Shown: positions 2,417-4,610, numbered from the stretch's first letter. The stretch is DNA of 35,977 nucleotides from Dehalococcoidia bacterium (GCA_034420915.1 DAOUKW010000157.1:1-35977); one strand, 5' to 3'. Notes: generated from the sequence alone by a model not told the origin. Made by a program: numbers and translations.

Positions 2417-2424
2417 GAAGCAGA
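2417..2424. repeat. left copy of the 8-bp target site duplication GAAGCAGA
   Basis: Identical octamer directly abuts the outer edge of each terminal inverted repeat (2417..2424 and 4494..4501). Confidence 0.8.
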
Positions 2425-2452
2425 GGGACTTATATCTAAGGGTACGCTGACG
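2425..2452 (+). repeat. left terminal inverted repeat GGGACTTATATCTAAGGGTACGCTGACG
   Basis: Exact reverse complement of 4466..4493. Confidence 0.9.
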
Positions 2453-2502
2453 GGTAGAAATCCTTGACAGTATTCCTGTGCTATGCTGTACACAGATTAG
2501 CG

Positions 2503-2575
2503 TCCCCCTGGTAGGATTCGAACCTACAACCGTACGCTTCGTCAGGCGTTGCTCTATCCATTGAGCTACAGGGGG
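2503..2575 (-). tRNA. tRNA-like gene with an atypical anticodon arm (closest to Arg-ACG; identity undetermined), possibly a pseudo-tRNA
   Basis: Sense strand: CCCCCTG TA GCTC AATGGATA GAGC A ACGC CTGACGAA GCGT ACGGTT GTAGG TTCGAAT CCTAC CAGGGGG A. Acceptor, D and T arms are perfect. The anticodon stem pairs only as 4 bp in a shifted register, enclosing 8 nt. First pair is C1-G72 and no CCA is encoded. Confidence 0.6.
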
Positions 2576-2583
2576 ATGTGAAG

Positions 2584-2612
2584 CGCCGGGGTTGAAAATG
2601 CCCCGGCGTTTC
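2584..2612 (+). terminator. GC-rich hairpin, possible read-in terminator upstream of the transposase
   Basis: CGCCGGGG (2584..2591) pairs with CCCCGGCG (2601..2608) around a 9-nt loop, then GTTTCC. The U tract is short, so this is weak. Confidence 0.3.
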
Positions 2613-2615
2613 CTT

Positions 2616-2628
2616 ACTTACCTGTTTG
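2616..2628 (+). repeat. 13-nt direct repeat ACTTACCTGTTTG (left copy) bracketing the transposase ORF
   Basis: Exact copy at 3683..3695. Both copies are preceded by TTTCCT. Confidence 0.6.
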
Positions 2629-2740
2629 TCGAGTATAGCAGTCGCTGTTGCCGTGCCCCCACTTGATCGCCCCTTGACATGTGCCGTATAGTGGGCCGCG
2701 AAACTTGACTTATGCGTACCTTTCTGCTAAAATTGGAGGC

Positions 2741-3679
2741 ATGAAGAACGATATGACGGCACCCGGCAAGCACTACCGCAAGGGCATGACTTTGCCCGAA
2801 CTGATGCGGCGATTTCCCGATGATAAAACGGCGGAGCGTTGGATTATCGAGCAGCGTTGGCCCAATGGGATTGAGTGCCCCAAATGCGGCTCAGACAACA
2901 TCAAGGATGGCACCAAGCATCCGAAGATGAATCTGTATTGCAGGGCATGCCGCAGGTATTTCTCGTACAAGACGGGCACCGCCATGGAGTCCAGCAAGCT
3001 CGGTGCGCAAGTGTGGGTGATTGCCACGTACTTGTTGACGACGAACCTGAAGGGCGTGTCCAGTATGAAGCTGCACCGCGACCTGGGTATCACGCAGAAG
3101 AATGCATGGCATTTGGCACACCGCATCCGCGAATCGTGGCGGCAGAAGGTGGACAGGTTCGCGGGGCCAGTTGAGGTGGATGAAACCTACATAGGCGGGA
3201 AGGAGCGCAACAAGCACGCTAACAAGAAGCTCCGTGTGGGAGGCGGTAGTGTTGGCAAGGCTCCTGTCGTTGGGATCAAAGACCGCGCAACGAACCAGAT
3301 AAGGGCAAAGGTTGTGCGGGGTACTGACCTACATACACTGCACAATTTCGTGACACGACTTACGGAGCAAGGTGCGAAGGTGTACACGGACGAGCATCCG
3401 AGCTATAACCACCTGCCGAACCATGAGGTTGTGAAGCACAGCGCCCGCCAGTACGTGGACGGTATGGCCTATACAAACGGCATCGAGTCGCATTGGGCGA
3501 TGCTGAAGCGCGGCTATTATGGTGTCTACCACAGGATGAGCTTCAAGCACCTCCAGCGATACGTCAGCGAATTTGCCAGCCGTCATAACAACCGCCGGTT
3601 CGATACAGAGGAGCAGATGGGGAAAATGGTGCGTGGGCTGGCGGGCAAGCGCCTACGGTATACCGACCTGATTTCCTAA
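2741..3679 (+). CDS. IS1595-family (ISXO2-like) DDE transposase with an N-terminal zinc ribbon
   Basis: Zinc ribbon CPKCGS...CRACRRYFS. Catalytic-region motifs VEVDETYIGG, VYTDEHPSY and NGIESHWAMLKRGYYGVYH. The start is ambiguous (ATG 2741 or ATG 2753; the ORF opens at GTG 2681). Confidence 0.88.
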   Translation: MKNDMTAPGKHYRKGMTLPELMRRFPDDKTAERWIIEQRWPNGIECPKCGSDNIKDGTKHPKMNLYCRACRRYFSYKTGTAMESSKLGAQVWVIATYLLTTNLKGVSSMKLHRDLGITQKNAWHLAHRIRESWRQKVDRFAGPVEVDETYIGGKERNKHANKKLRVGGGSVGKAPVVGIKDRATNQIRAKVVRGTDLHTLHNFVTRLTEQGAKVYTDEHPSYNHLPNHEVVKHSARQYVDGMAYTNGIESHWAMLKRGYYGVYHRMSFKHLQRYVSEFASRHNNRRFDTEEQMGKMVRGLAGKRLRYTDLIS

Positions 3680-3682
3680 CCC

Positions 3683-3695
3683 ACTTACCTGTTTG
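3683..3695 (+). repeat. 13-nt direct repeat ACTTACCTGTTTG (right copy)
   Basis: Exact copy of 2616..2628, 4 nt after the transposase stop. Confidence 0.6.
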
Positions 3696-3702
3696 GTGGC
3701 GG

Positions 3703-4053
3703 CTAATACCCCTTCTCCTCACACCTGAGGACATATACACGGAGTTCGATTTGGATTTCCCTATACCATTCTGGATCCCCGGTGACGGCGTACTGGACCA
3801 TGGCGTTCGAGATTACCTCGGCCTGTTCATCCAACCACCAATCCCCAGACGAACGCACGCCCGACATGAGAATGTCACCGCGCCGGTCCAATTCGTCGAA
3901 GAGCCGATTATCGACCAAGTTCTGTAGACCCTCGGCGGCACCACATGCATTGCGGTACTCCCGTGGCAGTGGTGTTGGTGTGGTGTATTCCGTCCCGCAA
4001 CCGACGGATATGGCCATCAGCAAGAACACGGCAAGAACGATTGGCTTCCGCAT
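3703..4053 (-). CDS. hypothetical small lipoprotein (transposon passenger)
   Basis: 116 aa. Signal peptide plus lipobox MRKPIVLAVFLLMAISVGC. SD GAGGGGG lies 7 nt upstream of the ATG. Confidence 0.65.
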   Translation of the reverse strand: MRKPIVLAVFLLMAISVGCGTEYTTPTPLPREYRNACGAAEGLQNLVDNRLFDELDRRGDILMSGVRSSGDWWLDEQAEVISNAMVQYAVTGDPEWYREIQIELRVYVLRCEEKGY

Positions 4054-4060
4054 ATGGGTA

Positions 4061-4183
4061 CCCCCTCACGGTCTGGGTCGGGCTTCTTTGCCAATCAGTC
4101 CGGCCGTACATCGAGCCGTGAGGGGGCATGTAGCCCCGACCCATGTACCCGATGTACACGAGGACTGATTGGCACGGTGAGGG
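4061..4183 (-). promoter_or_regulatory. highly structured leader upstream of the lipoprotein gene, with a helix that sequesters its SD
   Basis: Complementary segments: 4061..4071/4116..4126 (11 bp, includes the SD), 4074..4081/4136..4143 (8 bp), 4089..4101/4162..4174 (13 bp), 4106..4113/4150..4157 (8 bp). An alternative partner GTGAGGG lies at 4177..4183. Confidence 0.4.
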
Positions 4184-4223
4184 TATTGGCAGGGATTAGG
4201 GGATGTCAACCGACTTGACTGTA

Positions 4224-4251
4224 TTGACAACAGAGAGCACTGTGATATAGG
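4224..4251 (+). promoter_or_regulatory. sigma70-like promoter candidate for the small basic ORF
   Basis: TTGACA (4224..4229), 16-nt spacer, TATAGG (4246..4251), about 27 nt upstream of the ATG at 4278. Confidence 0.3.
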
Positions 4252-4277
4252 TAGACAGTGCAAACGAGGTAACGACA

Positions 4278-4457
4278 ATGGCATCACCCAAGAAACAACG
4301 CACACCGCGCCCCAAGAAGGGCAAGGTAGGCCGTCCAGCACGCCCCATGCCCGAACCGATACCCGACACGCCCGAAAACGTTATGCGGGCGATTGTGAAC
4401 ACGCCGCCCAAGAAAGCCCACGAGTGGGAATACATGCGTAAAGCCAAGAGTGGCTAA
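4278..4457 (+). CDS. hypothetical 59-aa basic protein (below the ORF-track cutoff), transposon passenger
   Basis: ATG preceded by GAGGT at a 7-nt spacing. Translation: MASPKKQRTPRPKKGKVGRPARPMPEPIPDTPENVMRAIVNTPPKKAHEWEYMRKAKSG. Ends 8 nt before the right IR. Confidence 0.4.
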   Translation: MASPKKQRTPRPKKGKVGRPARPMPEPIPDTPENVMRAIVNTPPKKAHEWEYMRKAKSG

Positions 4458-4465
4458 CGCACTTG

Positions 4466-4493
4466 CGTCAGCGTACCCTTAGATATAAGTCCC
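4466..4493 (-). repeat. right terminal inverted repeat
   Basis: CGTCAGCGTACCCTTAGATATAAGTCCC is the exact reverse complement of 2425..2452. Confidence 0.9.
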
Positions 4494-4610
4494 GAAGCAG
4501 AGCCCCCACCCATACTGCATGGCTATGCAATCCCCTTTGATGATGCGGTGGAAGATACCACGAAGCGTCTAAGCGCCATGTTTGAAGCTATAGAGCAAGT
4601 GATTCGCTAG
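4494..4610 (+). pseudogene. 3' fragment of the interrupted gene (starts with the right copy of the target duplication GAAGCAGA at 4494..4501)
   Basis: Reading gaa gca gag ccc cca ... stays open in the frame inherited from 1946..2424 up to TAG 4608..4610 (EAEPPPILHGYAIPFDDAVEDTTKRLSAMFEAIEQVIR). Confidence 0.6.

Follow-up and report, generated by a model that had tools for sequence, protein, structure and literature searches.

A probably autonomous IS1595-family transporter insertion sequence with a conserved small-protein gene and an arginine-type tRNA cargo

The window analysed here is the whole 35,977-nucleotide stretch DAOUKW010000157.1:1-35977 from a Dehalococcoidia bacterium, and it contains at 2425-4493 a transposable element that interrupts a conserved host gene. 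Taken as a whole, our results make it very probable that this element is an intact, autonomous 2,069-bp transporter insertion sequence (IS) of the IS1595 family, which encodes an accessory small protein and carries a tRNA gene acquired as cargo by its lineage. The element is a further member of an already known class of cargo-carrying ISs, and its empty site is proven. Its borders and the two parts of the interrupted gene are given below, with positions counted from the first letter of the window.

1946..2424, plus strand: 5' part of the host gene, which encodes a conserved hypothetical protein of 195 aa when restored
2417..2424, unstranded: left copy of the target-site duplication (TSD), GAAGCAGA
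2425..2452, plus strand: left inverted repeat (IRL), GGGACTTATATCTAAGGGTACGCTGACG, complementary to 4466..4493 at 28/28 positions
4466..4493, minus strand: right inverted repeat (IRR), 28 nt, a 100% match to the reverse complement of IRL
4494..4501, unstranded: right copy of the TSD, GAAGCAGA
4502..4610, plus strand: 3' part of the host gene, ending with the stop codon TAG at 4608-4610

The first-pass annotation of this DNA had proposed perfect 28-bp terminal inverted repeats and an 8-bp target duplication, and both are confirmed. The two repeats are exact reverse complements of each other, and the 28-bp pattern is found at only two sites in the window when up to three mismatches are allowed, where shuffled sequences are expected to give 0. 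The octamer GAAGCAGA lies at both outer edges. The element spans 2069 bp, 1130 bp of which are non-transposase DNA.

An empty site, the kind of evidence the annotation had pointed to, is also available. In-silico removal of 2425-4501 joins 1946-2424 in frame to 4502-4610 and yields one 195-aa open reading frame (ORF). An intact 197-aa homologue in the protein database (P0164) shares 70% identity with the restored ORF at 99% coverage, and the alignment is ungapped across the junction (...LLTYGEAE on its left, PPP... on its right). The P0164 locus (L224) is syntenic with the window, with three enoyl-CoA hydratase genes, two small genes and the P0164 gene, followed by isochorismatase, another hydratase and tRNA-Gly(UCC). 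At the insertion point the DNA of L224 reads CTTACCTACGGAGAAGCAGAA, with the octamer GAAGCAGA in a single copy and with neither IS nor tRNA. These comparisons show that the element entered the conserved 195-aa host gene at about codon 160, and that its insertion left the gene truncated and GAAGCAGA duplicated. Since the ORF is restored and the syntenic uninterrupted locus has a single GAAGCAGA, the event is a genuine transposition rather than an invertible segment. The empty site comes from the related genome L224, and not from the same population as the window.

The window matches the ENA metagenome scaffold NGUY21-1_SAMN17524325_METAG-scaffold_2654, and an independent Logan contig (SRR13587046, 1.7 kb) crosses the right junction. 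The G+C content is 51% at 2001-3000, which includes the left part of the element, versus about 58-65% in most of the window; the low value is consistent with a foreign origin of the element.

The genes between the inverted repeats are the following.

2502..2575, minus strand: cargo tRNA gene, Arg-type by its sequence, transcribed towards IRL; matched by Rfam and ARAGORN
2741..3679, plus strand: IS1595-family DDE transposase of 312 aa, with Pfam and NCBIfam matches
3703..4053, minus strand: putative orphan passenger, a 116-aa secreted or lipoprotein-like protein without a family match
4278..4457, plus strand: putative accessory gene for a basic protein of 59 aa with an AT-hook-like GRP core and a PIPDTPENV...PPKK..W.Y motif

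The assignment of the ORF at 2741..3679 to an IS1595/ISXO2-type DDE transposase agrees with all profile searches. The protein matches Pfam DDE_Tnp_IS1595 (PF12762) at 9e-38, Zn_ribbon_IS1595 (PF12760) at 26.5 bits (cutoff 25.4) and NCBIfam NF033547 at 168 bits (cutoff 75). In the alignment with 79 relatives, the zinc-ribbon cysteines C46, C49, C67 and C70, the full DDE triad of D147, D217 and E249, and K256/R257 all fall in columns that are at least 95% conserved. K256 lies at +7 from E249, and R281 at +4 from E277. An alternative start at ATG 2753, which would give a protein of 308 aa, is also possible. Judged by these residues, the transposase looks active.

About 60 relatives were found, with transposase identities of 45-66%, and nearly all of them come from uncultured metagenome-assembled genomes (MAGs) or metagenomes. 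The nearest transposases are only 55-66% identical to that of the window, and nothing above 66% was retrievable. Annotated plasmid copies have at most 43% transposase identity and are named just 'IS1595 family transposase'. We delimited 59 related elements, and some of the small-ORF and tRNA counts given below use the 53 that came from the genome scan. The 59 elements measure 1.3-6.4 kb (median 2.9 kb), and 49 of them have a perfect 8-bp TSD. Their termini are GGGAATTATAT or a close variant, and the IRL of the window begins GGGAMTTATAT, as in about 60 elements. The A+T content of the TSDs in the clade is 85%, versus 44% in the flanks, and the targets of the clade are strongly A/T-rich. There are several multi-copy sets, among them L017, L018 and L019, which are identical across 2,638 bp at three sites, each with a different TSD, and sister elements demonstrably move together with their cargo. 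The protein cargo of the clade includes DNA methyltransferases (9), HindVP and MvaI/BcnI restriction enzymes, HNH nucleases, DruA, SocA/Panacea, Fic/DOC and T5orf172; most of it consists of restriction-modification, toxin or defence genes. The MAG names among the relatives include Chloroflexota/Dehalococcoidia, Tepidiformaceae, Poribacteria, Entotheonella, Latescibacterota, Palauibacter and 'Ca. Poriferisodalis'. Names of this kind are typical of sponge symbionts, a context suggested by the names only.

The ends of the window element, GGGACTTAT, fit the form GGnnaTTAT given in the annotation, and the roughly 60 relatives share GGGAATTATAT ends and 8-bp duplications. We take the ISNwi1/ISNwi1+ subgroup of ISfinder to be defined by GGnnaTTAT ends, an 8-bp direct repeat, a DDEK motif with a downstream E..R (ER4) and, in the '+' form, a length of 1.75-4.75 kb with passenger genes. 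Under this definition the clade, whose ends are GGGAMTTATAT, would be compatible with the ISNwi1(+) subgroup. Like the transporter ISs of the IS1595 family and its ISNwi1/ISNwi1+ subgroup, the element has a transposase that combines the DDE_Tnp_IS1595 domain with an N-terminal zinc ribbon and has K/R after DDE; it further shares with them an 8-bp duplication, GGnnaTTAT ends, a length within 1.75-4.75 kb and passengers between the inverted repeats. As previously noted from the sequence, extra genes do lie inside the ends: the lipoprotein-like gene and the tRNA gene are within 2425-4493 and are absent from the empty site. The element differs from the transporter ISs in that its transposase reaches no more than 66% identity with any retrievable sequence, that its cargo includes a tRNA gene, and that a conserved AT-hook-like small ORF, for which we found no description, stands at the right end of the clade. 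The concept of the 'transporter IS' (tIS) was put forward by Siguier, Gagnevin & Chandler 2009, as cited in PMC3129680.

As an observation apart, two IS copies of the clade are distantly flanked by perfect inverted repeats, at 1532-2253 and 7497-8218 in L019 (722 bp) and at 1606-1978 and 7012-7384 in L004 (373 bp), which suggests that these copies sit between inverted duplicated host segments.

The 59-codon ORF had been counted among the extra cargo of the element. The ORF is indeed present at 4278-4457, but it is not extra cargo, since homologues are found in 29 of the 53 delimited relatives (tBLASTN and iterative hidden Markov model search). They usually lie on the strand of the transposase gene (tnp) and end 30-65 bp from the right end. 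The alignment of the small protein leads from a basic N-terminus with a K/R-R-GRP core through PE-PI-D-(A/D)-TPE-(E/N)-(I/V)A to PPKK..W.Y. The database holds 42 homologues, all of them unnamed or called 'hypothetical protein' and without Pfam domains, in which G18-R19-P20 is near-invariant and I28, D30, T31 and N34 are invariant. Three of the 42 have weak matches to Pfam AT_hook. All inspected contexts of the homologues adjoin an IS1595 transposase. In the AlphaFold (AF2) model the N-terminus is disordered and two short helices are formed, with a predicted local distance difference test score (pLDDT) of 80.

Judged by these alignments and contexts, the 59-codon ORF is a conserved gene of the clade and not a passenger. 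We infer that the small protein is a clade-specific accessory DNA-binding factor; plausible binding sites are the termini (GGGAATTATAT) and the preferred targets of the clade, both of them A/T-rich. The protein is dispensable in principle, since L044 and L045, minimal relatives of 1.3 kb, do without the small ORF and yet are multi-copy. A conserved, unannotated AT-hook-like protein of about 55 aa marks the right end of many elements and is a candidate accessory factor in a family whose mechanism, to our knowledge, has been poorly studied. The nearest relative of the right end of the window element is the 776-bp contig L082 (LUOR22-1_SAMEA13322676), in which the small ORF is 80% identical, the IRR is GGGACTTACATACGAAGGTAAC and an A/T-rich flank, TAATAATA, follows. 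The DNA upstream of the small ORF in L082 is unrelated to the window cargo.

The tRNA-like gene noted earlier is a real tRNA match at 2502-2575 on the minus strand, which scores 55 bits against Rfam RF00005 (gathering score 29). ARAGORN calls it 'tRNA-?' (Val or Arg) with the anticodon gacg. At minimum free energy the RNA folds into a cloverleaf in which the acceptor, D and T arms are normal, with a 7/5 acceptor/T geometry and a 6-nt variable region; the D-loop is AAUGGAUA with A20, and the discriminator is A73. The anticodon arm has a 4-bp stem (ACGC/GCGU) and an 8-nt loop, CUGACGAA, in place of the canonical 5-bp stem and 7-nt loop with U33. The loop resembles an Arg(ACG) loop plus one G (CU-G-ACG-AA), with the numbering being ambiguous in an 8-nt loop. 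The first acceptor pair is C1-G72, in place of the G1 or U1 start taken as typical of the host tRNAs. The gene ends ...GGGGGAC, followed by GC, so that CCA is not encoded, unlike in the host chromosomal tRNAs of the window, where 5/5 encode it.

A scan of public metagenomes and viral contigs with the 5' half of this tRNA returned 139 matches, 130 of which are complete tRNAs. The body of the cargo tRNA is Arg-type by sequence, because 125 of the 130 tRNAs that share its scaffold are tRNA-Arg (UCU 105, CCU 16, UCG 3, CCG 1), in keeping with A20 and A73. An origin from tRNA-Val(GAC), the ARAGORN alternative and also the 'Val' call in L032, was rejected in view of a scaffold that is 96% Arg. The loop size is regular in all 130 scaffold relatives, the metagenome scan with the 5' half gave no second copy with an 8-nt loop, and the exact odd anticodon arm plus T-arm had 0 matches in viral contigs. 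The IS-borne tRNAs of L031 and L032 share their body with the cargo tRNA, and the differences are compensated (G1-C72 and three covarying T-stem pairs). Their anticodon arms differ and are also aberrant, one with a bulged stem and a 5-nt loop and the other no longer forming a cloverleaf. The closest transposase relatives, L225-L229, were checked for a tRNA in the corresponding slot and contain no tRNA at all. Non-standard loop sizes are rare among natural tRNAs (PMC5009743). Because it is a single instance, shows no conservation and has several non-canonical features, the cargo tRNA gene most likely derives from a tRNA-Arg and has lost normal decoding, being in decay or otherwise non-canonical. 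The transposition machinery probably does not make use of it.

In the same Arg-scaffold scan (L085-L223), 5 of the 130 tRNAs have non-Arg anticodons, namely UAC (twice), AGU, CGC and CUA, and the relative with CUA would be an amber suppressor. Several of the scaffold matches consist of a 5' half only and break off within the anticodon loop, as scars of integration sites typically do.

The annotation had considered a tRNA cargo unusual for an IS. This is right for ISs in general, but the window element is not unique in its clade, since tRNAs are present in 12 of about 60 clade elements: ARAGORN finds them within 11 of the 53 genome-scan elements, to which the element of the window is added. The tRNA density is 9.4 per 100 kb inside the elements versus 1.3 outside, an enrichment of about 7-fold, and after removal of identical copies 13 tRNAs remain against 2.0 expected (Poisson p about 2e-7). 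On the transposase tree, the elements with a tRNA do not group together but belong to at least 8 dispersed lineages. The IS-borne tRNAs are Arg-, Phe-, Pro-, Ser-, Gly-, Val-, Asp- and Ala-like and score 39-60 bits, compared with 54-72 for chromosomal ones, with two falling under the Rfam threshold; most of them are non-canonical. Among the cargo tRNAs, those of L078, L031b and L032b stand out by a long variable arm or an 8-bp acceptor stem, combined with an unexpected anticodon. Most tRNAs of the clade lie downstream of tnp on either strand. In three elements, those of the window, L003 and L078, the stretch from IRL to tnp contains a tRNA-like gene on the opposite strand, and the three genes are unrelated. 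The co-cargo of the tRNA-bearing elements includes no consistently present tRNA-acting enzyme.

Thus, the clade carries tRNA or tRNA-like genes at about 7 times the level of the surrounding DNA and in many independent lineages, and the identical multi-copy elements show that the tRNA travels with the IS. These are delimited examples for an earlier suggestion that tied irregular tRNAs to transposable elements. We found no description of tRNA genes as IS passengers in the one library searched, which is not proof of novelty.

On the loci of the relatives, the tRNA-like genes at L031 6810-6899, L032 6208-6293, L017 2290-2376 and L078 3842-3934 are 86-93 nt long and have long variable arms, with an 8-bp acceptor stem according to ARAGORN in L031 and L078. 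Their anticodons are of the Arg (GCG, CCU) or Ala (UGC) type and their bodies are class II- or allo-tRNA-like; 3 of the 4 lie within IS1595-clade elements. At L060, two low-scoring tRNA matches (46 and 32 bits) stand in tandem at 3256-3327 and 3337-3408, just upstream of an IS1595-clade transposase.

We then propose a model for the element. From what is known of the family, the transposase would have bound both inverted repeats and catalysed the insertion into the host gene. From left to right, the element consists of IRL, an outward-facing Arg-type tRNA with an aberrant anticodon arm, a strong hairpin that would shield tnp from incoming transcription, a putative strong tnp promoter and tnp, and then an opposite-strand lipoprotein-like passenger with a long hairpin, the gene for the 59-aa protein and IRR. 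The small protein may act as an accessory factor of the clade at the A/T-rich termini or targets. The tRNA would have been acquired as cargo by the lineage of the window, as has repeatedly happened elsewhere in the clade.

Other explanations of the ends and of the tRNA have to be weighed against this model. That the 28-bp repeats bound an invertible or recombining segment, or that the element is a dead fossil, would fit with the one known copy and with the failure to find a polymorphic empty site in the same sample. We give this next to no credence: no recombinase ORF is encoded, the transposase is intact, the direct 8-bp duplication and the exact restoration of the host ORF are signatures of transposition, and dozens of relatives have the same ends together with TSDs, including identical multi-copy sets. 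The invertible-segment alternative, which the annotation had left standing, is excluded by the syntenic empty site. The tRNA-like genes might instead form a functional module, as decoys for anticodon nucleases or as substitutes that resist their cleavage, as partners of toxin-type cargo, or as cis-acting RNA-processing or insulator signals next to IRL. Such a role is suggested by the roughly 7-fold enrichment of tRNA genes in at least 8 lineages, by the IRL-tnp slot that unrelated tRNA-like genes share in the window, L003 and L078, and by a clade cargo dominated by restriction-modification, Fic/DOC, SocA/Panacea, DruA and nucleases. It seems unlikely to us, as the position and orientation of the tRNAs vary over the clade, their types differ, most elements, the closest relatives included, have no tRNA, no tRNA-acting enzyme is consistently carried along, and the protein cargo of the window is an orphan lipoprotein rather than a defence gene.

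A further explanation takes the cargo tRNA for a functional, arginine-accepting decoder, in which the 8-nt loop CU-G-ACG-AA would read CGUC as a +1 suppressor, or Arg at CGU or GUC, and the IS would spread the tRNA as a recoding or suppressor device. The Arg-type body is intact: it folds into a clean cloverleaf, bears A20 and A73, and its loop contains the triplet ACG. The acceptor- and T-stem differences from the IS-borne relatives are compensated and not disruptive. SufB2 and SufJ are precedents, and laboratory tRNA-Arg mutants with 8-membered anticodon loops are reported to cause +1 frameshifting (Tuohy et al. 1992). A function of this tRNA would make it one of the rare expanded-loop tRNAs that occur naturally in bacteria. 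We consider a decoding function very improbable. The tRNA is a single instance, 0 of the 130 scaffold tRNAs have an irregular loop and the exact arm was not found in viral contigs; the anticodon stem has only 4 bp, no U stands immediately 5' of ACG, CCA is not encoded and position 1 is C. The homologues in L031 and L032 have different broken arms, which looks like decay and not like a conserved design. No gene of the element needs a frameshift, with CGU followed by C occurring once in tnp, and frameshifting is not known from enlarged-loop tRNAs that occur in nature (PMC5009743). A broader proposal, that the clade systematically spreads functional non-canonical tRNAs (suppressors and recoders, or decoys), whose bodies are kept while their anticodon arms are altered, together with defence and toxin genes and that the AT-hook mini-protein is a new cofactor of transposition or target selection, is in our view distinctly unlikely. 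If it were true, the 8-nt-loop Arg tRNA of the window would be a natural transposon-borne +1 frameshifter, or the tRNAs would serve as resistant substitutes in tRNA-targeting conflicts.

Several observations weigh against the interpretation that we favour, an intact transporter IS with an accessory protein and a non-decoding tRNA cargo. No second copy of this exact element was found by exact-protein look-ups or in viral contigs, and the same population yielded no polymorphic empty site, so that current activity is inferred rather than shown. The annotation's statement that the element was recently active therefore draws on flawless inverted repeats and TSD, on catalytic residues that are all intact and on a relative's empty site, but not on a second copy. 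With an A+T content of 4/8, the TSD of the window departs from what is typical of the clade. That the small protein binds DNA is read from its motif only. The cargo tRNA keeps a clean cloverleaf with compensated changes relative to its IS-borne relatives, and an extended -10-like sequence, TGCTATACT, lies upstream of it at 2640-2632 on the minus strand and could drive it; with this fold and motif, the tRNA may be expressed and functional in some way. The enrichment of tRNAs in the clade hints at selection or capture bias over pure accident.

Exact look-ups gave the same picture for the single proteins. The transposase protein had no match from either of two start codons, and the lipoprotein-like protein was found only on the scaffold of the window and on the 1.7-kb right-junction contig, with no independent copy. 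The 21-nt core of the inverted repeat had 0 matches in viral contigs.

The cargo tRNA can be compared with three kinds of known tRNAs. With the +1 frameshift-suppressor tRNAs (SufB2, SufJ and sufT-type tRNA-Arg mutants), it shares one extra nucleotide in the anticodon loop and a normal body, and the sufT-type provides an Arg-type precedent for suppressor tRNAs with an 8-nt loop. Those tRNAs were selected in the laboratory, have 5-bp anticodon stems and are proven to be charged and to decode, whereas the tRNA of the window has a 4-bp stem, lacks CCA and G1, and is known from its sequence alone. Allo-tRNAs (Mukai 2017, PMC5389517; Krahn et al. 2020, PMC7609411) are likewise non-canonical tRNA genes in mobile or conflict-gene contexts. 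They have an 8/4 or 9/3 acceptor/T geometry and a long variable arm, while the cargo tRNA has 7/5, is irregular in the anticodon arm only and lies physically within a delimited IS; the tRNAs of the relatives L078 and L031b do look 8/x with long arms. The tRNA genes of phages and other mobile elements resemble it in being travelling cargo. In contrast to those of phages, plasmids and integrative and conjugative elements, the vehicle here is a 2-kb IS, and the tRNAs are mostly non-canonical and not codon-usage supplements.

The remaining features within the element are structural or regulatory.

2580..2612, plus strand: 13-bp hairpin and U-rich tract between the antisense tRNA and the tnp promoter
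2616..2628, unstranded: first copy of a 13-nt direct repeat, ACTTACCTGTTTG
2705..2733, plus strand: putative tnp promoter of the sigma-70 type, TTGACT-17-TAAAAT with TG before the -10, 10/12 to the consensus; a consensus match only
3683..3695, unstranded: second copy of the 13-nt direct repeat, ACTTACCTGTTTG; the pair brackets the tnp module
4089..4174, minus strand: long imperfect hairpin of about 86 nt between the divergent lipoprotein-like gene and the small ORF

The lipoprotein gene and its structured leader, both of which had been pointed out before, are recovered. The ORF at 3703-4053 on the minus strand has, by sequence reading, an N-terminal signal peptide and a lipobox-type cysteine (MRKPIVLAVFLLMAISVGC). 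The protein has no match in Pfam or NCBIfam, no homologue was found in the related elements, and only 5 matches were obtained among 1.8 billion representatives, the best informative one covering residues 22-65 and a repeat unit of larger proteins. By these searches the lipoprotein-like ORF is a true orphan passenger. The hairpin upstream of it, at 4089-4174, has a folding free energy of -68.6 kcal/mol over 147 nt (z = -4.6). This hairpin is unique, since neither the window nor the loci contain a further copy, and was rejected as a repeat resembling repetitive extragenic palindromes or miniature inverted-repeat transposable elements; it was also rejected as a known RNA, with no Rfam match.

The predicted tnp promoter ends 7 nt ahead of ATG 2741, and the tnp mRNA would be near-leaderless. 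The hairpin at 2580-2612 has a folding free energy of -26 kcal/mol (z = -6.0), and 0 of 200 shuffles fold as well. It was not called by a simple terminator scan; it appears terminator-like and would insulate tnp from read-through of the host gene. The 13-nt direct repeat was rejected as the scar of a nested insertion, as no inverted repeats lie inside it, and as a motif of the family, as it is absent from the relatives.

The neighbourhood of the element differs from L224 at a second place. The window has at 5395-6390, between the isochorismatase and enoyl-CoA hydratase genes, an ORF of 331 aa with an N-terminal hydrophobic segment; it is absent from L224, where the isochorismatase and hydratase genes adjoin, and represents a second indel between the two genomes. 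At least four paralogous enoyl-CoA hydratase (ECH_1/ECH_2) genes with 74-77% DNA identity lie near the element (window 55-828 and 6531-7412, and L001 beyond the window start; L224 2778-5858 and 8400-9281), and this expansion is kept in the syntenic relative L224.

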